Shown in pieces: positions 5,886 through 42,375 of a stretch of DNA of 64,000 nucleotides; position 1 is the stretch's first letter, and every line of letters begins with the position of its first letter. The notes under the pieces are model-generated. The model searched no databases. It saw nothing but the letters and a program-made list of their open reading frames with translations, and was not told where the DNA came from. Origin of the DNA: Escherichia coli (lineage in GTDB: Bacteria; Pseudomonadota; Gammaproteobacteria; Enterobacterales; Enterobacteriaceae); assembly GCF_003334405.1 (NCBI RefSeq), contig NZ_QOWM01000018.1. The stretch is one strand, 5' to 3'. The position numbers and the translations under genes were made by a program.

Positions 5886-6344
5886 ATGAACCGTATTATA
5901 CCTGCGGGGTGTCTTGCCGCCCTTTTTCTGGCTGGCTGCAACTCCCCTTCTCAGCATACTCCTGTTCCGCGTAACTACGGTGCTGCCTCTGATGTGGCGG
6001 TTACCCGGCACACTCAGTACACATTATGGGACAAAGGTGTGTTTTCCGGTCAACTTCCGGTTTCAACGGGGTCTCATCTTCTGACAGCTAACAGCGATCG
6101 CCTTTCCTTTGACTGGGAAGGTGATGCGATTGAATTACTGAACGAACTGGCCAGAGTCAGGGGGATGCAGTTTAACTACAATGGTGTCCGCCTGCCGTTA
6201 CCAGTCAACCTTCACGTCCGGGATATGACGTTTTCCAATACGTTGAGACTTATTGAAGCCCAGACAGCCTGGAGAGCAACAATCCATCAATATCCGGGCC
6301 TGTTACAGGTCAGCTTCATGCAGCCGGAGAACCGGAAAAAATGA
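5886..6344 (+). CDS. traH: conjugal transfer lipoprotein
   Basis: lipobox LAGC after signal peptide; name by position. Confidence 0.6.
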   Translation: MNRIIPAGCLAALFLAGCNSPSQHTPVPRNYGAASDVAVTRHTQYTLWDKGVFSGQLPVSTGSHLLTANSDRLSFDWEGDAIELLNELARVRGMQFNYNGVRLPLPVNLHVRDMTFSNTLRLIEAQTAWRATIHQYPGLLQVSFMQPENRKK

Positions 6345-7159
6345 AAGCACTCACCTCTCTCATTTTGCCAGTAATACTGCTTACTGGTTGTTCTTCTTCC
6401 CCCACCATCTCGCCAGGTGGTGTCAATACGCCACCACCTGACATTAATGCATGGCTTAAACCACGAAGTGAAAAGCCGGATAGTCTGTCAGAAACCCGCT
6501 GGAAAATGCTGACCGACGCGGGTAAAACGCTTGGATTTCGTGGTGGCAAGGCTCAGCGTTCATGGGAGCTGATTCAGGCACTCAACGCCCGGGAAAGCAC
6601 ACTTAATGCCTTATACGATTTCCGGCCACTGATTAGCCCGGAAGGCTGGCTACCACCGGTTATTGATGAAGCACAGGACGTTGCTCATATCACGCCAGAT
6701 CAAATCCGGACCTCTTCCCGGGTCTGGACCATCATTCGCCCTGAACGCTTTGTCAGCAATCCACCGGGCTGGCGTGACTGGCTTCTCCGGGGGCTTTCAA
6801 CAACAGCCACTCCGGGTACAGAAGGCAGCGTCGTTCCAGAAGACAGCGTGCAACGAAAAGTGTGGGAAACCGCATTACGGCAGGGATGGCAGGAAGGAAG
6901 ACAAAACGCCGACCTGACGCTTGAAGCCAACCAGAAAACCCTCACCCGTGATTACCGGGGCATGATGCTGTACTCACTTCTCTGGCGTCAGGGCATGATC
7001 ACCCGTCCGGATGTTTCTGATCAAATGCAAACCGTTACAGGTGACGGGAAAAAACTGGTCACTGGAGATCGTGTTCGTCGCCTTAAAAATCATGCGGAAT
7101 TCAATCTTCAGAAATCTCACTGGCGTCCGCTTATAGGCACTGAAGGAGGCTCCCGATGA
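6341..7159 (+). CDS. traI: conjugal transfer lipoprotein (DotC-like position)
   Basis: lipobox LTGC; overlaps traH stop; name by position. Confidence 0.6.
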   Translation: MKALTSLILPVILLTGCSSSPTISPGGVNTPPPDINAWLKPRSEKPDSLSETRWKMLTDAGKTLGFRGGKAQRSWELIQALNARESTLNALYDFRPLISPEGWLPPVIDEAQDVAHITPDQIRTSSRVWTIIRPERFVSNPPGWRDWLLRGLSTTATPGTEGSVVPEDSVQRKVWETALRQGWQEGRQNADLTLEANQKTLTRDYRGMMLYSLLWRQGMITRPDVSDQMQTVTGDGKKLVTGDRVRRLKNHAEFNLQKSHWRPLIGTEGGSR

Positions 7160-34396: not shown

Positions 34397-34429
34397 GGCC
34401 GCGCCGGATTCTGGCGCGGCCTTTTTTTT
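34397..34429. terminator. bidirectional terminator between convergent trbC and nikB
   Basis: AGGCCGCGCC-loop-GGCGCGGCCT hairpin followed by T8. Confidence 0.6.
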
Positions 34430-37127
34430 AACCTGGAGAAGGCGGTTCCCAGCGTTTATCCTGCTCCGGCGGAGGCAGTGATGCGTCATCGTTGCTGTTC
34501 GCCGCGATATAATCGCGGTAGTAGCGTTCACTTCCTTCACGGTGATGATCCACGTCCGGTCGCGTAATCCTGTAGTCTTCGTGACCGGTACGGCCTGTCA
34601 CATTATGCCAGGCAACCATTTCAGCAAAGACCTGGTTAAATTGTTTGTCGTTTCCTTCTGGTTCAAAACCCATGCGTGGATCACGCCCGAATAATACCGG
34701 TGCAATCAAATCCAGTTTATCTGCCAGCGCATTGCGGTCATGGTGATTACGGAAAACAACCCTGTCACCATAATCCGTACAGACAAACTCTCCCGTCCGA
34801 CGGTCACGGAAACGAACACTCCCGTTCTTCTGCAGACGGGCCTCGAGATCACCGGTATTACCGTATACCGGCGTTCCGCCCGGTTCACAAAGCACGACAC
34901 AGCGGTCTGTCGTCGTTGTGCGTGACTTGTCTTTACGGCGATCGCGATAATCCCAGCCTCTCAGCTGCGATACAGCAGCCCTGTCTCCCTGAGCAGCCTG
35001 AATTTCGACCCACTGACGGTAAGAGGGTGGATACCACTTCCCGTCAGCAATAAGTTTCTGTCGCTCATCCCTGATGTCTTCTTTCAGTCTGATCAATGCC
35101 TGCATTCGCTGAACTTCTGCAATGTGATAATGCAGCTTACGTAATGCCGGATCATCGTACTGCGCACGAATGTGTGACTTCCGCAGACGGCATGCCTGAT
35201 GAATTTCCCGACAACGTTCCCCATAACGCAGATCCGGTTTACGCCATTGTTCACGCCATGCCAGATAGCGGGCACGCAGGTCAGCACGGGCCTCAGCCCT
35301 GGCTTCACGTCGCTGCCGGCGCAGCATTGGATCACGTTTACTGCTGACCCCGTACCTGTCACTGACAGCCAGCTCCGGGTTATAGCGATTTTCAGGTTGC
35401 ACCCTGTCAAACAAATCTGCTGGGGCACTCACAAAAGGTCCGGCCTGTGGCTCCGCACGCCCCAGTGTCAGATCAGGATGAATGCTGCTGGCTTTCACCG
35501 GCGTTTGCTCATGATTAAAGGCATCAACGACAACAAGCCCGTGATGTTGTTTCTGTAGCATCAGTCCCTGTTGTGCAAACAGCTCATGACAACGCTGCCA
35601 GGTAAACTCACCCTGTGTGATCATTTCTTCAATCTGAGGGCTACAATGGCTGATGCTGTATCCCCACAGACTTTCTTTGTCAGAAAACAGTTCGCGTTTG
35701 ATAGCCCCCTGCGGCCCCGTACCTGTACGCATACGGTGCCATTCTTTATCGGTCGCAGGACAGCTCTCCATACGACGACCACGGAAGCGTTCTGTTGGCG
35801 TAACCTGGCGAAAAATATCTGTTGGTACAGGCTGCCAGCCACCATCGAGTTGATTCACATTGTCGAGCGTCAGCAGTGACCATACGCTGTCAGCACGAAC
35901 GGGAGTCTGGTTATGATCATAACCGTCACAGATAACCAGGTGACCATGCTGAACACGCATCCATAATCCCGCTTCAGCCAGTGTGCGGTGAATAGCCTGG
36001 CAGTTTTCCAGCCGTCCTTCCCGTGCCATTTCCGGCAGACGTTCTCCAAGATGACGACAGGCATACTGCTGCAGACTTTCTGTTTCAGCGATTTTTTCCG
36101 GGCGAACATCAGCTGCAATGAAGTCCGGATTATAGCGTCCTGGTGCTTCCACCTGGCTGAAAATGTCTTTTGGTACTGGCGTGTAGTCACCCATTTTTTT
36201 CATGAGTTTTTCTGCACACCAGGAAGGGCCAAACGAGTCAAGCTGTACACCTTCCCTGTTGCGATCCCAGCCATCCATCACCAGAAATTTTCCGTCCATC
36301 TGAGACAGGTACAGACCATCTTCAGCAAGACGACGATGCAGGGATAACCAGTCATGTACAGGTTCACTGCGTAAACCAGCTACCGCTGTCTGCGCAACAT
36401 ACTCGCGAAAAGTTTGTTTTCTCCCGCGTGTCCACGCGTTCTGGCGATCACGTTCAACGGCGGTTTTGCGAACGATACGATTTCCCGGTGCATGGACCCA
36501 GCAACCGTTATCCGGAGCAAAACCATGCTTCAGTTCAAGCTCACGGCAGGCACGACTGAGTTTTTCCTGACTCCAGGATAACCGGTTCAGATAACCCGTT
36601 TCAGGGTGTACCCGGTTAACAGCCACATGGGCGTGCAGATTATCTGTATCAGTATGCACGGCAGAGACATACTGATGGTCGGCAAGGCCGAGTGATTTCA
36701 GCGTATGACGTACACTGTCATAAATCTGTTCCGGACGCGGGCTTTCATGTGACTGCCAGGAAAGGATGTAGTGAAAAACAGGATCAGTGTCATCTTTTGC
36801 ATAGTGTGCCTGCCGGGCAATGTACTCCATATCTGCAGCGGCAGTTTCAAGAGAAGTACAGTTATGAAAGCAGGTGACACCATAAAAGTTGACCCATTCG
36901 CAGCCGTCCTTCATGACATCAACCAGCGCCACGAATGACTCATTTCGAAGACGTGTCGCATAATCAACAAGGCGACTGAAACGGCTTCGGTGCGGTTGTT
37001 CAGCCTGCGAAGAAGAAGATAAATCCAGTTCCTCATCGGTCATGTCATCCCGGACAGAGACGTAGGATACCAGGTCTTCGAACGAAGACTTGCCGTCCCT
37101 TCTCTTTTTCGGAATGACTGCATTCAC
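34428..37127 (-). CDS. nikB: oriT relaxase NikB (MOBP family)
   Basis: 899 aa; histidine motif HTDTDNLHAHVAVNRVHPETG; adjacent to nikA and oriT. Confidence 0.85.
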   Translation of the reverse strand: MNAVIPKKRRDGKSSFEDLVSYVSVRDDMTDEELDLSSSSQAEQPHRSRFSRLVDYATRLRNESFVALVDVMKDGCEWVNFYGVTCFHNCTSLETAAADMEYIARQAHYAKDDTDPVFHYILSWQSHESPRPEQIYDSVRHTLKSLGLADHQYVSAVHTDTDNLHAHVAVNRVHPETGYLNRLSWSQEKLSRACRELELKHGFAPDNGCWVHAPGNRIVRKTAVERDRQNAWTRGRKQTFREYVAQTAVAGLRSEPVHDWLSLHRRLAEDGLYLSQMDGKFLVMDGWDRNREGVQLDSFGPSWCAEKLMKKMGDYTPVPKDIFSQVEAPGRYNPDFIAADVRPEKIAETESLQQYACRHLGERLPEMAREGRLENCQAIHRTLAEAGLWMRVQHGHLVICDGYDHNQTPVRADSVWSLLTLDNVNQLDGGWQPVPTDIFRQVTPTERFRGRRMESCPATDKEWHRMRTGTGPQGAIKRELFSDKESLWGYSISHCSPQIEEMITQGEFTWQRCHELFAQQGLMLQKQHHGLVVVDAFNHEQTPVKASSIHPDLTLGRAEPQAGPFVSAPADLFDRVQPENRYNPELAVSDRYGVSSKRDPMLRRQRREARAEARADLRARYLAWREQWRKPDLRYGERCREIHQACRLRKSHIRAQYDDPALRKLHYHIAEVQRMQALIRLKEDIRDERQKLIADGKWYPPSYRQWVEIQAAQGDRAAVSQLRGWDYRDRRKDKSRTTTTDRCVVLCEPGGTPVYGNTGDLEARLQKNGSVRFRDRRTGEFVCTDYGDRVVFRNHHDRNALADKLDLIAPVLFGRDPRMGFEPEGNDKQFNQVFAEMVAWHNVTGRTGHEDYRITRPDVDHHREGSERYYRDYIAANSNDDASLPPPEQDKRWEPPSPG

Positions 37128-37137
37128 CGGAGAATCC

Positions 37138-37470
37138 TCAACCTTCCATTAACTGTTTACGCAATGTATTTGTAAGTTCGGTTATGGCAACAAGCACTTC
37201 TGCGTATTCCTTGTCACCGGTTCTTTTTCCCTGAACAAACAGATGCTTCTGCATCCTTCCCAGTCTCATTAACTCCTTCAGAAAAGCATCATCTGTACGG
37301 GAGTTAATTCGCTTATTCAGTGCTGCATTTCGGATGTAAGCAGATACAGTAAGTCCGGAATCTTCAGCTTTTTTCCTGATGGTTTCATCCTCAACAGGAG
37401 AGAATCTGAGTGTCCTGACAACTGTCTTTTGCCGTACCTCACTTTTCTTTCTTACCGCACTATCACTCAC
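37138..37470 (-). CDS. nikA: relaxosome accessory protein NikA (ribbon-helix-helix)
   Basis: 110 aa from GTG 37470 with AAGGAG RBS; sequence VSDSAVRKKSEVRQKTVVRTLRFSPVEDE. Confidence 0.8.
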   Translation of the reverse strand: MSDSAVRKKSEVRQKTVVRTLRFSPVEDETIRKKAEDSGLTVSAYIRNAALNKRINSRTDDAFLKELMRLGRMQKHLFVQGKRTGDKEYAEVLVAITELTNTLRKQLMEG

Positions 37471-37509
37471 TTCAGGCTCCTTACGGGGTGTCGGGGCGAA
37501 GCCCTGACC

Positions 37510-37570
37510 AGATGGCAATTGTAATAGCGTCGCGTGTGACGGTATTACAATTGCACATCCTGTCCCGTTT
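37510..37570 (+). promoter_or_regulatory. oriT: origin of transfer oriT: inverted repeat 37516-37526/37543-37553 and nick-region motif CACATCCTGT at 37554-37563
   Basis: CAATTGTAATA-N16-TATTACAATTG followed by ATCCTG, directly upstream of nikA. Confidence 0.7.
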
Positions 37571-37703
37571 TTCAGGCCATTATAGCCTGTTATTTTTGTG
37601 CATCATAGTCTTATGCAGACGGCAGAGGCAGGGCGCAGCCCTGCCAGGAGGCAGTTTTTGATGATAAAATCAGACTTCAACATGAAACGGAGAGAAAGTG
37701 CCA

Positions 37704-38039
37704 ATGGCTTCTAAAAAATTTTACTCAGATGATGACATCCAGCTGGCAAAAGCTGCCTTATCGGAATTGCCGGACCTCACCGCTCAACGGAAAACATTGC
37801 GTGATTTTCTTGATGCCATTCGTGATGACATCATTGTCCTGGTAAGGACAAAGGGTTATACACTGGCAGATGTTCGTGACACGCTCAAAAATGCAGGGTA
37901 TGAAGTAGGAGAGAAGGCACTTCGTGACATTATTCGGGAAGCAGAATCGAAAAAACCATCCCGCCGTTCTTCCTCTAAAACAGCACCTAAAAAGACAGAT
38001 TCAGCCAGGAAAGATGGCATCGATATGAACAACAATTGA
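37704..38039 (+). CDS. hypothetical protein with Lys/Arg-rich C-terminus
   Basis: 111 aa from ATG 37704, GGAGAG RBS; palindrome TGTGACAATGTCACA right after stop. Confidence 0.45.
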   Translation: MASKKFYSDDDIQLAKAALSELPDLTAQRKTLRDFLDAIRDDIIVLVRTKGYTLADVRDTLKNAGYEVGEKALRDIIREAESKKPSRRSSSKTAPKKTDSARKDGIDMNNN

Positions 38040-38124: not shown

Positions 38125-38973
38125 TCAGACTCGTGGCGGCAATGAACCAGGATAATGCCGTGCAATAATATCATTCAGTTTTTCAACAAGGTCAGGACGC
38201 TTAAAGACAATGTGTACGGTCCCTTTCTGGTAGCCACGCACCGTAAAATATTCCCCTTCTAACAGCTTACCGACATTGTCGCCGTTCCCGAGAAATTCAC
38301 CATACTGCGCCCCGATGCTGCTCCGGAAGTCAGGAACGTTGCGCCCCTCCAGCAGATAAAACGGACGTACCAGGTCATCCAGTGCCTCTCGTCCGCTGCA
38401 GTCCAGCGTCACACGCCCGTTACTCCAGCGGTACAGCAGGTTTTCAATAATGATTTTCTTGCCCAGACGGCATGGATTGTTGGTTCTGTAATCCCATGAC
38501 AGTTTCCTGTAGACATCAATCAGTCCCTGTTCAAATGTCTGCATCTTACTGGCATTCAGATGGCGAAAAGTTGCCAGCACATTGTCCAGGGTGATTTCAG
38601 GACAGGTGTCGCTCATCAGCTGGCTGTTCCACTCATCACGCTGGCATGAACTCATGAAGGTGTACATCCCCGTATCCGTCATCAGGCGGTCCCAGATTTT
38701 ACGGTCGGCAAGACGGGTGATATTCCTTTTCACTTCTTCCGGTTTATCCATGCACCGAATGGAGTCGGTCACGCAGTCTTCAAAACCGTAAAGAAAAATA
38801 TCACCTGACGCATCAAGCAGAATCCTGCGCGCTGTCGCCAGGCATTCCATCGCCTGCATGAACAGTGCAATACCTTCGTTACGCTGCGCGATGATGCGGT
38901 CGATGGCCACAGACGGAATAACATCTGTCGTGCCGGCAGTATTCAGGTCAGCAGTGGGTAAAGTCTGATTCAT
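38125..38973 (-). CDS. hypothetical leading-region protein (oriT-proximal, first minus-strand gene to enter the recipient)
   Basis: 282 aa from ATG 38973 with GAGGAGA RBS; no motif recognised. Confidence 0.6.
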   Translation of the reverse strand: MNQTLPTADLNTAGTTDVIPSVAIDRIIAQRNEGIALFMQAMECLATARRILLDASGDIFLYGFEDCVTDSIRCMDKPEEVKRNITRLADRKIWDRLMTDTGMYTFMSSCQRDEWNSQLMSDTCPEITLDNVLATFRHLNASKMQTFEQGLIDVYRKLSWDYRTNNPCRLGKKIIIENLLYRWSNGRVTLDCSGREALDDLVRPFYLLEGRNVPDFRSSIGAQYGEFLGNGDNVGKLLEGEYFTVRGYQKGTVHIVFKRPDLVEKLNDIIARHYPGSLPPRV

Positions 38974-39014
38974 CACATTGTCTCCTCATCGTCACGACTG
39001 CCGGGTCAGCCAGG

Positions 39015-39330
39015 TCATCTCCCGGAGGAGCGAAGCTCCTTCTGCCGTCCGGGTCTTCGGGGATTTCCCCGCAGTGGACCTTTCCGACGGGGGACGCTCA
39101 CCACGTCACGGGGCAGTTGTCCGGGGGCAGACGCAAAAGTTTTTGACGCCTGCGGCAAAAAGTTTTGTGGCTGGTACATCTCTCCCCTGGATGACTGAAA
39201 CGGGATGTGGTCGTGTATGTACCCCCGGAAAGTCCGTCTGCGGAGAACGGGCCGCAGGGCGGCGGCAGGCAGGCAGAGAGAACTGCGCCATCAGGCGCAG
39301 TGGCCTTACACACCGTAAGGTGTGCAGGGA
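39015..39330. promoter_or_regulatory. structured repeat family 1, copy A (Frpo/ssi-like single-strand promoter candidate), truncated
   Basis: aligns with 41880-42375 and 48225-48728; lies 5' of the minus-strand gene 38125-38973. Confidence 0.55.
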
Positions 39331-39450
39331 GCGCCGCATCCGGCGCGACCGGAGAAAACCGACGGCACAACAACGGCATGCGGTGGTCACTGGTACACCA
39401 CTCCCGCACAGGTGAAAACAGAGAAAACCGCACGACATCTACAACTAAAA

Positions 39451-39552
39451 AAAGTGAAATTTCTTCACTTTTTTACACTTATTTATTGCGTTGATTTGGT
39501 GATTGTGATGATAAAATAAAGTGAAGTTTTTTCACTTTTTCAAAGGTGTTTT
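39451..39552 (+). promoter_or_regulatory. promoter flanked by two palindromic operators AAAGTGAA-N6-TTCACTTT
   Basis: palindromes at 39451-39471 and 39518-39540; -35 TTGATT 39491-39496. Confidence 0.5.
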
Positions 39553-39804
39553 ATGACCGGCTGGGAACTGCGAATCTGGCGAAAAAGCATGCTCTGGTCA
39601 CGCGAAAAAGCGGCCAGAGAATTTGGCGTGACACAGAGAACATGGCACGCCTGGGAAAATGCGGATCAGGTGGATGTCACCGTCTGGAGGACCACCCAGG
39701 CACTTTCAGTCCGTGACCTGCTGCCTCACATGCAGGGGATGCGCAAGGCAGATATCATCAGGCGTCTGGAAAATGAACTGGGGGAAACGGCAGAGGATGT
39801 GTGA
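39553..39804 (+). CDS. small helix-turn-helix (XRE/Cro-like) DNA-binding protein
   Basis: 83 aa; HTH-like segment WSREKAAREFGVTQRTWHAWENA; only plus-strand gene in the leading region. Confidence 0.55.
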   Translation: MTGWELRIWRKSMLWSREKAAREFGVTQRTWHAWENADQVDVTVWRTTQALSVRDLLPHMQGMRKADIIRRLENELGETAEDV

Positions 39805-39834
39805 GCGTGATTCACAGCCTGGCTGAATGCCAGG

Positions 39835-39993
39835 CTACTGCTCATCAGGAAACAGTTTTTTCAGTTCTTCACCGGAAAGTCCGGTCGCCTCCTGAATCCG
39901 TTCCGGCGGCCAGCCCATATCCCGCAGCCGGCAGGCTATTTCCCGCGCCACTTCAAGAGCGCCTTTTTGAATAAGACGTTCTGCAATCGTCAT
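39835..39993 (-). CDS. free-standing RpnS-like small protein (homolog of Rpn C-terminal tail)
   Basis: 52 aa from ATG 39993: MTIAERLIQKGALEVAREIACRLRDMGWPPERIQEATGLSGEELKKLFPDEQ, parallels the last 61 aa of adjacent Rpn. Confidence 0.45.
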   Translation of the reverse strand: MTIAERLIQKGALEVAREIACRLRDMGWPPERIQEATGLSGEELKKLFPDEQ

Positions 39994-40055
39994 GCTGTTT
40001 GCTCTGCTCCTGCTGGCAAAAAAGCCCGGGATTTTGCCGGGCTTTGCGGTTCTCA

Positions 40056-40970
40056 TTAGTGAGTTATTTTCTTCAGTTCGTCATCGGAAAGTCCGGTAGC
40101 CTGCTTAATCTGCTCCGGCGTCATCCCCATTTTCTGAAGCTGGCACGCAATAGCCAGGGCTTTTTCAAGCGCTCCTTCCATGCGTCCTTCCATCCTGCCT
40201 TCCTGGCGACCTTTTTGCTCAAGACGTTCTGCGATAGTCATCAGTTTATCCTCATGCTGCGGCAGACGCTCAGCCAGCGCCCGCATAAATTCCGGTGATA
40301 CAGAGTCCCCTGCGTTAACGATGTAATGAATCAGAACACGCACCTGCTCGTCTGAAATTTCCACCATGACCTGCGGGAGTTTGTCCAGCAGCTCCATCAT
40401 GTCACGATGGCGGATATGCTTCATCAGCAGCGTCAGTGCGGCCATCCGGCGATGGTTCATGATTTCATTGTCATCAACGACAGTGATATCAACCAGCGGA
40501 AACGGCTTTGTGTATATTTTAGCCGCAAGTGCCGGATTCTCAAAACAGTCCAGCCAGTTCATGCTGTACGGATACGGGCTGCGCTCACCATGATAGAACA
40601 GCACCGGAATCACCAGTGGCAACGTTTTGTGCTGCTCCAGATGTCTCTGCATCGCCGCCACACTGTAACGTAACATGCGGAAAGGCATGTACAGATTTTC
40701 GGTGCTCTGGTGCTCGATGAGCGTATAAACATAGCCATCTTCACCCCCGGTGGTTTTCACGCTCCAGAGGATATCGCTGGCGTACTGATGCAGGTCCGGC
40801 TCAACAAAGGTGGCGGGTTCCAGCTTCAGCGTGGACAGGTCGCACAACTGCCGGTACTCCGCCGGAAGATGCAGTTCCAGAAAATCTCTGGCGACGTCGG
40901 GATTCGCCAGGAACGACCGGAACGCGGCATCGTGCGGCGTGGGCGTTGTGGTGTTTTTCTTCTTACTCAC
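40056..40970 (-). CDS. Rpn-family (YhgA-like, PD-(D/E)xK) recombination-promoting nuclease
   Basis: 304 aa from GTG 40970 with AGGAGG RBS; motifs DGYVYTLIEHQSTEN, in-frame internal Met MTIAERLEQKG 61 aa from the end. Confidence 0.65.
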   Translation of the reverse strand: MSKKKNTTTPTPHDAAFRSFLANPDVARDFLELHLPAEYRQLCDLSTLKLEPATFVEPDLHQYASDILWSVKTTGGEDGYVYTLIEHQSTENLYMPFRMLRYSVAAMQRHLEQHKTLPLVIPVLFYHGERSPYPYSMNWLDCFENPALAAKIYTKPFPLVDITVVDDNEIMNHRRMAALTLLMKHIRHRDMMELLDKLPQVMVEISDEQVRVLIHYIVNAGDSVSPEFMRALAERLPQHEDKLMTIAERLEQKGRQEGRMEGRMEGALEKALAIACQLQKMGMTPEQIKQATGLSDDELKKITH

Positions 40971-41034
40971 GGTTCCTCCTGGTGAGATGTCTGAACGTAT
41001 CCTGCCGCCTGCACAGGCAGACGGCAAGGGTTAA

Positions 41035-41829: not shown

Positions 41830-41879
41830 GAAAACGTCTCCTTCTGCTGAATCAGGTCGCCGGGCCGACCGGTTGCTCC

Positions 41880-42375
41880 CCGGAGGGGCGAAAGCCCCTT
41901 CTGCCGTCCACTTCTTCGGGGTTTCTCCCCGCAGTGGACCTTTCCGATGGGGCGTCCGTCACCACGTCACGGGGCAGCTGTCCGGGGGCGGACGCAAAAT
42001 TTTTTGCCGGGTTTATGGCTAAAAATTTTGTGGACGGTATATCTTCCCCTGGACTGCTGAAACGGGATGTGGTTACTCCAGCCCCCGGAAAGTCCACAGC
42101 GGGAAACAGGCCGCAGGGGTGGCGGCGGAAGGGTTGACTGCGCCATCAGGCGCAGTTGCCTTACACACCGTCAGGTGTGCAGGGAGCGCCGTTTCCGGCG
42201 CGACAGGGGCGGCGCGACCGGAACGGTCGCTGCAAGCCTGGTTTTTCAGACATCGGACCGTAGCGGCAGCCCGAAACCGCGCCAGCGGGTTCGGCGGAGA
42301 CTGGCGGGTGCGCCAGCAGCTGCCTGTCGGAGTCGGGCCTGACGACCGGATGCCGCCAGGCAGCCGGGAGCCGAA
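41880..42375. promoter_or_regulatory. structured repeat family 1, copy B (Frpo/ssi-like single-strand promoter candidate)
   Basis: ~500 bp, near-identical to 48225-48728; many internal hairpins (CTGCGCCATCAGGCGCAG, CACACCGTCAGGTGTG). Confidence 0.6.

Follow-up and report, generated by a model that had tools for sequence, protein, structure and literature searches.

The HTH gene, its promoter and two palindromes

We analysed a stretch of 64,000 nucleotides of Escherichia coli DNA (contig NZ_QOWM01000018.1), which is called the window below and is part of an IncI1/B/O-type conjugative plasmid. The analysis concerns one small helix-turn-helix (HTH) gene within the plasmid's leading region and two palindromes located upstream of it. 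The HTH gene (39553..39804, plus strand), the IncI 'ygeA', starts with ATG and encodes an 83-residue protein of the WP_000148279 type. The palindromes O1 (39451..39471) and O2 (39518..39538) are predicted operators. Based on their sequences and on those of related loci, the gene and O1/O2 very probably form one self-contained, negatively autoregulated repressor cassette of the XRE family.

As the original prediction had proposed, the HTH protein is XRE/Cro-like in nature. Residues 3–40 match Pfam HTH_31 (E = 1.6e-4), and HTH_3 was also matched; among 11 family members, eight match HTH_31 at E ≤ 0.001 and six match HTH_3. The AlphaFold2 (AF2) model has a predicted local distance difference test (pLDDT) score of 85.5; it contains one N-terminal HTH (helices 3–12, 17–24 and 28–35), followed by two longer helices (42–60 and 65–81). 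In the Foldseek comparison with the PDB, the best neighbours are HigA2, HipB, Aca2, Aca1 and SinR, with probabilities of 0.8–0.99 and E values above 0.1; the search returned generic XRE neighbours only, none of them at E ≤ 0.001. The solved protein closest in sequence is Aca2, of which the N-terminal HTH matches residues 1–61 with E values of 9e-4 (protein) and 1.1e-4 (profile), followed by HipB. The PADLOC defence-system models and NCBIfam gave nothing meaningful for the HTH protein. Judged from these matches, it is a generic XRE-type HTH protein.

Compared to the 81–84% identical Salmonella alleles, which share the same synteny, the ratio of nonsynonymous to synonymous substitution rates (dN/dS) is 0.10, at a dS of ∼0.93–1.1. 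Because dN/dS is ∼0.10, we take the gene to be real and under purifying selection. The N-terminus, MTG(W/Y/F)EL(R/K)(L/I)WR, is kept in relatives down to 30% identity. One profile search against 1.84 billion representative proteins gave ∼110 clusters at E ≤ 1e-10, mostly 55–140 residues in size. Homologues are present in ∼3,700 plasmids, ∼2,000 of the IncI complex and ∼1,700 others with relatives; ∼2,000 PLSDB plasmids share the 600-bp HTH region at ≥95% identity.

O1 and O2 are perfect palindromes of 21 bp each, which follow the pattern AAAGTGAA-N5-TTCACTTT, with 8-bp arms, a 5-bp spacer and the core GTGAA-N5-TTCAC. The distal operator O1 is AAAGTGAA-ATTTC-TTCACTTT (AAAGTGAAATTTCTTCACTTT), and its dyad stretches to 11-bp arms (39448–39474); the proximal operator O2 is AAAGTGAA-GTTTT-TTCACTTT (AAAGTGAAGTTTTTTCACTTT). 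Both had been noted before, exactly and at the right positions, except that the second palindrome was extended by two T to 39540; it ends at 39538. The distance between O1 and O2 is 67 bp. One TG-extended −10 element, TGaTAAAAT (39509..39517, plus strand; TG at 39509–39510 and TAAAAT at 39512–39517), lies directly before O2. The predicted transcription start (∼39523–39525) is located inside O2, which overlaps both the start and the early transcribed region; the centre of O1 is ∼63 bp upstream of the start. The Shine–Dalgarno sequence, as read from the DNA, is AAGGTG (39543..39548, plus strand).

A −35 element, TTGATT, had also been proposed. The hexamer is present (39491..39496, plus strand) with 4/6 matches, but its spacer to the −10 is 15 nt in length, L040 and L042, two Salmonella variants, lack it, and it is not conserved in the 81–84% identical variants; our promoter scan, which required a spacer of 16–18 nt, did not call it. 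An extended −10 promoter, TGaTAAAAT, is the better description. Two further candidates in the region were rejected. The sole site that the scan gave for a divergent minus-strand promoter, GTGAAA-16-TATCAT, occurs at chance frequency and, by eye, is not conserved in L003 or L004. One possible third operator at the HTH stop codon (39801–39815, one mismatch) was taken as a chance match, as neither L040 nor L042 retains it.

The predicted sites are conserved well above their surroundings. Compared to the 84% identical Salmonella allele, O1 is 82%, the TG-extended −10 100%, O2 87% and the Shine–Dalgarno sequence 100% conserved, whereas the DNA left of O1, the interval between O1 and the −10, and the DNA 3′ of the gene are only 33–40% identical, with 33–35% for the stretches that flank O1. 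The TG-extended −10 is 100% conserved in both L040 and L042, and the segment from the Shine–Dalgarno sequence to the ATG is 100% conserved in L040. Read from these alignments, the conservation pattern at the HTH promoter is that of a textbook phylogenetic footprint.

The HTH allele and promoter of the window (39553–39804) differ sharply from those of the Salmonella IncI variants (L040/L042, 3001–3252), despite identical gene order. Between them dS is ∼1 and non-functional intergenic DNA is ∼33% identical, which suggests either allelic replacement or an old divergence of the HTH module. The operators of the L040/L042 variants are hybrid GTGAA/GTGTA dyads.

The operator motif across the family and on the plasmid

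We compared 35 loci of the family, which comprise PLSDB matches, phage matches and 27 loci from one-genome-per-species contigs; the encoded proteins are 30–98% identical. The family motif was defined as GTGNN-N5-NNCAC with at most one mismatched inner pair, and the upstream zone as the 150 nt before the HTH start codon. The upstream zones contain 37 occurrences in 5.25 kb (7.05 per kb), compared to 28 occurrences in the remaining 302 kb of the loci (0.093 per kb; the calculated chance rate is ∼0.107 per kb). The upstream enrichment of the motif is thus ∼76-fold. At least one site is present in 27 of the 35 loci and two sites in 10; more loci carry one degenerate distal copy.

The position of the motif is also constrained. 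In most family loci, the left edge of the proximal core is located at −29 to −33 from the ATG. Among 25 non-redundant loci, nearly all have one −10-like hexamer (TAAAAT, TAGAAT, TATAAT or TACAAT) that ends 2–3 nt before the proximal core; therefore, the proximal operator is predicted to cover the transcription start. The inner bases of the half-sites vary with the recognition helix: GVTQRTWHAW, the type found in the window, goes with GTGAA, the (C/S)LR(S/T)YKxY types with GTGCA, SLRTYKRY with GTGAC and SLATYKRY with GTGTC. These comparisons support the view that the palindromes would behave as operators of this HTH family.

To identify further operators, the original prediction had advised a search of the plasmid with the pattern GTGAA-N6-TTCAC. 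The spacer is N5, and the N6 pattern matched nothing; with the corrected spacer, only O1 and O2 were found. Within the window, there is no third match to AAAGTGAA-N5-TTCACTTT even at three mismatches (0.30 expected). One complete sister plasmid of 84,986 bp, which encodes the identical protein, contains only O1 and O2 at ≤3/16 mismatches, and elsewhere the core AAGTG-N9-CACTT occurs at chance level only. Because the plasmid contains no other operator, direct repression by the HTH protein would be limited, on the plasmid, to its own promoter.

In addition, we scanned 2.9 million contigs of viruses and mobile genetic elements for the exact operator. The scan identified 61 contigs, mostly with single sites in AT-rich DNA (median GC content 0.38); most of these matches appear to be chance sites. 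A family homologue is present on four of the 61 contigs. In L069, L070 and L086 the operator is located just upstream of the homologue gene, as in the window; in L056 it is ∼2.4 kb from the homologue match. L067, one viral contig of 60% GC, carries three intergenic copies of AGTGAAAC(N1-3)GTTTCACT (6960–7135). Its paired sites were rejected as the same operator, as they belong to one unrelated, longer palindrome; presumably, the L067 palindromes are the operator set of a different regulator, and the pattern match is coincidental.

Strand, plasmid setting and recurring neighbourhood

The leading genes of the plasmid are on the minus strand, and their template is the transferred T-strand, which is the plus strand of the window. 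For the HTH gene, the T-strand is the coding strand, not the template; therefore, the gene can be read only after complementary-strand synthesis. With high confidence we infer that the HTH gene is silent until the complementary strand has been made. Genes opposite the T-strand have been described as not transcribable from the entering single-stranded DNA (ssDNA) (Samuel et al. 2024).

Between 38.1 and 54.0 kb of the window, all real genes are on the minus strand, with the HTH gene as the sole exception. The earlier statement that it is the only plus-strand gene of the leading region is thus nearly right; it overlooks umuDC, on the plus strand from 54.6 kb, and one conserved 113-residue open reading frame (ORF) beside the origin of transfer (oriT; 37698–38039, plus strand). 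In many genera, relatives of this ORF, 35–60% identical and sometimes annotated 'MobC', are located beside NikA/MobA-type oriTs; like the HTH gene, it is conserved and coded opposite the T-strand. On the oriT side of the HTH gene lie nikB (34428–37127, minus strand), nikA (37138–37518, minus strand) and the oriT-proximal DUF4942 gene (38125–38976, minus strand), which is divergent from the HTH gene. On the other side are one RpnS-like gene of 73 residues (39835–40056, minus strand) and the Rpn gene (40056–41027, minus strand), followed by two small ORFs, a second copy of a structured element, ArdA and, farther away, psiAB, parB and ssb. The gene order around the cassette is DUF4942 (−), HTH (+), RpnS-like (−) and Rpn (−).

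The RpnS-like gene lies downstream of Rpn, whose C-terminal region it duplicates in diverged form: 39856–39965 and 40068–40177 are 75% identical in DNA sequence, and its relatives have one weak match to Pfam HTH_Rpn_C. It looks like a stand-alone RpnS-type partner, present as a separate gene instead of being internally coded.

The family has been catalogued before but is uncharacterised there. As family 22 of Samuel et al. 2024, it is an HTH family of 2,333 members, enriched in leading regions, with a median position of 2 from oriT on strand −1, opposite the T-strand; its neighbours are family 24 (DUF4942, position 1), family 20 (RpnE-like, position 3) and family 18 (RpnB, position 4). The order in the window matches families 24, 22, 20 and 18 at positions 1–4 exactly, and our assignment was made by gene order and strand, not by sequence. 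Although the family is labelled 'anti-CRISPR-associated gene 6' in that study, only three of the 2,333 members match the Aca6 model; it is a table entry, given there with neither operators nor a mechanism, and is absent from the main-text discussion (Samuel et al. 2024). Our literature search found no experimental work on this HTH protein. The name 'ygeA', used for the HTH gene in some IncI records, is easily conflated with the 'ygeA' of the F plasmid (L044, 10033–10320). The latter encodes 95 residues, is driven by Frpo1, is expressed early and is important for conjugation (Couturier et al. 2023). It was rejected as a relative: it is an unrelated T-strand ORF. Neither a homologue of the HTH protein nor the operator was found in the F plasmid.

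The DNA between DUF4942 and O1 (39008..39432, plus strand) is strongly structured, and we describe it as a context element outside the cassette. It adjoins O1 and serves the divergent DUF4942 gene as one ssi/Frpo-like single-strand promoter. Its predicted ssDNA fold has z = −6.6 on the T (plus) strand and z = −5.8 on the minus strand. A second GC-rich structured copy (∼41850–42300, z about −6) lies upstream of the Rpn operon, so that each copy is upstream of one minus-strand leading unit. The two copies share blocks of 87–93% identity (39089–39148 with 41950–42009, and 39282–39352 with 42137–42207). By analogy, these elements match the ssi/Frpo class of ssDNA promoters, described for the IncI1 plasmid pESBL (PMC12672017) and for F (PMC9849209). 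In three lineages, one structured element fills the interval that separates the operators from the divergent unit next to oriT (window, z = −6.6; L003, z = −6.2; L004, z = −5.2). The 'ssi3 operon' of PMC10104558 was rejected as the HTH locus; it is the ssb-psiB unit. Two ORFs (39322–39519 and 38978–39415, both plus strand) lie inside the ssi element, and their RefSeq relatives are annotated 'hypothetical protein', for example WP_072135275.1 (65 residues). The ORF of this 65-residue type, which crosses O1 and the HTH promoter, is probably spurious.

The opposite-strand placement is a recurring one. One lone opposite-strand HTH gene is located 1.3–4 kb from one NikA/MobA-type oriT in at least 17 loci; the genera are Escherichia, Salmonella, Citrobacter, Erwinia, Yersinia, Buttiauxella, Enterobacter, Pluralibacter, Rahnella and Hafnia. 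On its oriT side, these loci carry DUF932, DUF4942 or DUF5983 genes; the genes of the far side are antirestriction, N6-methylase, Hok and PsiA/PsiB. In ∼26 of 33 loci the next gene downstream is convergent, frequently at a distance of 0–80 nt or with a 4-nt overlap, and its identity varies by lineage (Rpn, DUF957/antirestriction/methylase, Hok or terS). In 19 of 20 loci, no canonical plus-strand intrinsic terminator was found up to 250 nt from the HTH stop codon. In the window, the HTH and RpnS-like genes converge with 30 nt between them, and this gap contains one G+C-rich hairpin, AGCCTGGC-TGAAT-GCCAGGCT (39816..39836); it has no U-tract in either direction, and no terminator was called there.

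The family is not confined to plasmids. The podophages Erwinia phage PEp14 (L008, 4001–4222) and Klebsiella phage SopranoGao (L009, 4001–4219) carry lone antisense HTH relatives between terS and terL, which overlap the 3′ end of terS by 4 nt; in SopranoGao, two imperfect GTG(A/C)A-N5-T(T/G)CAC sites flank one TATAAT. One subgroup at 30–38% identity (L002, pCTX-M3, 6001–6249; L006, L026, L029, L031 and L037) comprises IncL/M plasmids of the pCTX-M3/pOXA-48 type and relatives. Its members head or sit inside one co-directional operon that also contains xer-like recombinase and parM genes, and their palindromes are different (AAAATGTTCAAATATGAACATTTT and TGCAGAnTCTGCA). The pCTX-M3 type is the same subtype as that of the ∼63.6-kb Klebsiella plasmids; the gene next to the pCTX-M3 homologue (30% identity) is annotated 'restriction endonuclease'. 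Because the family recurs in phages and in co-directional operons with other palindromes, it appears to be a portable local repressor module.

Proposed mechanism and alternatives

In the proposed mechanism, a dimer of the 83-residue protein would bind the two dyad operators, in which the centres of the half-sites are separated by one turn of the helix. Occupancy of O2, which starts directly after the TG-extended −10 and covers the predicted transcription start, would block initiation; O1, upstream of the −35 region, would probably add cooperativity or block upstream contacts. After complementary-strand synthesis in the recipient, the promoter would fire unrepressed and then shut itself down. 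We infer with high confidence that the dimer would bind O2 and O1 and repress its own promoter. That the gene is an autoregulated repressor with operators around its promoter had been suggested at the outset, and it is borne out by the position of the operators, the −10, the covariation with the recognition helix, and the contrast between the conserved sites (82–100%) and the DNA between them (∼33%).

Several points weigh against this reading. Each functional step of the cassette (binding, repression and dimerisation) is read from sequence. The covariation of half-site and recognition helix, which gives approximately four specificity classes, is confounded by phylogeny. The spacing between the operators is 43, 55–57, 64 or 67 bp, so it has no constant helical phase, and cooperative looping is not indicated. 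Eight of the 35 loci lack the GTG...CAC motif; some of them have other palindromes and some have none. A repressor with its own promoter as the sole target also lacks an obvious purpose, and one unseen target is likely.

The cassette resembles several known systems. Like HipB/HigA2 and the XRE/Cro-C1 autorepressors, it has a small helical HTH with HTH_31/HTH_3, profile and fold matches, and palindromes over its own promoter. Different from these, the HTH gene is monocistronic and convergent with its neighbours, with neither a toxin partner nor a co-transcribed gene, and the protein has two extra C-terminal helices. A type II antitoxin of the HipB, HigA or MqsA type was rejected: there is no adjacent toxin on the same strand, and the NCBIfam models for MqsA and HipB gave 13 bits, compared to cut-offs of 62 and 79.

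The controller (C) proteins of restriction–modification (R-M) systems are HTH proteins of ∼80 residues whose own genes are preceded by palindromic operators in pairs, and their expression is delayed in a new host. The HTH cassette shares the small HTH and the paired upstream palindromes, and the pCTX-M3 homologue precedes the 'restriction endonuclease' gene; however, C-boxes are adjacent, within ∼35 bp, whereas the family operators are 43–67 bp apart. An R-M controller was rejected for the window, which has no R-M genes on its plus strand and operators 67 bp apart. Repressors of the ArdK/ArdR type reportedly act on IncN and IncW plasmids, and autoregulated plasmid promoters are said to overshoot in transcription after conjugation. 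As with ArdK/ArdR, the HTH protein would be a plasmid repressor in the establishment or leading region, of which the negative feedback predicts one transient burst in a naive recipient. ArdK governs several operons via repeated operators, whereas here only the gene's own promoter, on the strand opposite the early genes, would be controlled. By analogy, the HTH cassette would work like the Aca, C-protein and ArdK-type repressors, without demonstrated membership in any of these groups.

What the autorepressor cassette might do beyond homeostasis is far less certain. With low confidence, we rank a local cis effect first, trans targets off the plasmid second, and homeostasis alone, of a protein with some other activity, third. 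Our best guess, which is speculative, is that the cassette could, in double-stranded DNA, locally bound two leading transcription units against each other, either via the bound repressor/promoter complex or via unterminated convergent transcription into rpnS/rpn.

In its general form, such indirect control in cis would mean that unterminated antisense transcripts into the convergent early genes, or a repressor–operator block of leftward read-through into the oriT-proximal unit, or both, shut off or insulate early expression. We regard this as unlikely. In its favour, the gap to the convergent neighbours is very short or replaced by a 4-nt overlap, an intrinsic terminator is missing in 19 of 20 loci, the cassette is always at the junction of two co-directional leading units and back-to-back with one ssDNA promoter, and phages carry the same antisense insertion between terS and terL. 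However, the boundary or antisense role is purely positional and speculative; autorepression would hold antisense transcription low at steady state, Rho may stop an untranslated antisense transcript early, and ssDNA promoters are reported to switch off unaided on conversion to double strands (PMC12672017).

An equally low probability is given to a regulator in trans, of which the key targets would be off the plasmid, either among the genes of the host or on mobile elements that are co-resident or incoming, with O1/O2 serving homeostasis. The plasmid has no other target, the cassette is autonomous while its neighbours vary, and there are at least four operator specificity classes, as expected if cross-talk among related elements matters. 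Against this, the scan of 2.9 million contigs of viruses and mobile genetic elements gave no external site, only mostly single chance matches, with a homologue on 4/61.

Current work views the leading region as an early anti-defence programme of the plasmid that ssDNA promoters drive, and how this programme is bounded after conversion to double strands is barely studied. Of the conserved leading-region genes here, the HTH gene is the one expressible only after this conversion. A bolder proposal, which we consider quite doubtful, is that the cassette is a conserved sensor of the transition from single- to double-stranded DNA, of which one brief pulse of antisense transcription and repressor, directly after complementary-strand synthesis, would either end or insulate the anti-defence programme of the early phase or act in trans to reprogramme genes of the host or of competitors; diversified operators would keep co-resident plasmids orthogonal. 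The predicted operators, start site and specificity classes provide an experimental handle, for one single- to double-strand reporter, a test of shut-off after establishment, and orthogonal repressor/operator pairs. If there is nothing beyond self-repression, the protein is one more small XRE regulator. As an autorepressor it is of an ordinary kind; its conserved opposite-strand placement beside one ssDNA promoter is the most interesting part, and modestly so.

That the protein is an Aca2- or Aca6-type regulator of an anti-defence operon is improbable. Aca2 (DUF1870; phage ZF40 and O. smirnovii) follows the logic of burst and then shut-off on cell entry, and it too has two inverted repeats at its promoter/5′ region and a mobile-element anti-defence setting (PMC6765145). 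The HTH of Aca2 is the best sequence match among solved structures, Samuel et al. 2024 used the Aca label, and the region is rich in anti-defence genes. But HipB and HigA2 match about equally well, and the Aca6 model matches almost none of the catalogued family. DUF1870 (PF08965) was found in 0/11 members; the protein has 83 residues, compared to ∼120–125, and lacks the C-terminal dimerisation domain of Aca2; and its operator core GTGAA-N5-TTCAC differs from the TTCG-N6/8-CGAA of Aca2 (PMC6765145). Aca genes follow acr genes within one operon, whereas here the promoter directly precedes the HTH gene, the adjacent genes are convergent or divergent to it, and no anti-defence gene is co-transcribed. 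Different from Aca2, the HTH gene is also on the strand that cannot be expressed early.

The original prediction further held that the HTH protein might gate the Rpn/RpnS genes and the block behind repeat copy B. Direct repression through operators at their promoters is very improbable, and this part of the prediction is not supported: the HTH gene does face the Rpn block convergently, and its product is possible only after conversion to double strands, but at ≤3/16 mismatches neither the window nor the complete 85-kb plasmid contains a further operator, the motif occurs at chance rate in the 302 kb of family flanks, as does AAGTG-N9-CACTT elsewhere, and the convergent partner differs among lineages, hence there is no specific partnership with Rpn.

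Equally remote is the idea that the palindromes are structural elements, either bidirectional intrinsic terminators that would insulate the two leading units or small ssDNA hairpins of the neighbouring ssi element. In its favour, the palindromes have A- and T-run flanks, each could form one hairpin on either strand with a U-rich stretch behind it (−6.3 to −12 kcal/mol), and O1 lies 19 nt from the ssi structure. Against it, the stems have two G·C pairs only, no terminator was called at them, and their folding does not involve the ssi element. Their location is fixed with respect to the start codon of the HTH gene and the −10 rather than to the neighbouring genes, their half-sites covary with the recognition helix, and the same motif is present in relatives that are not beside an ssi element (phage L009 and plasmid L007).

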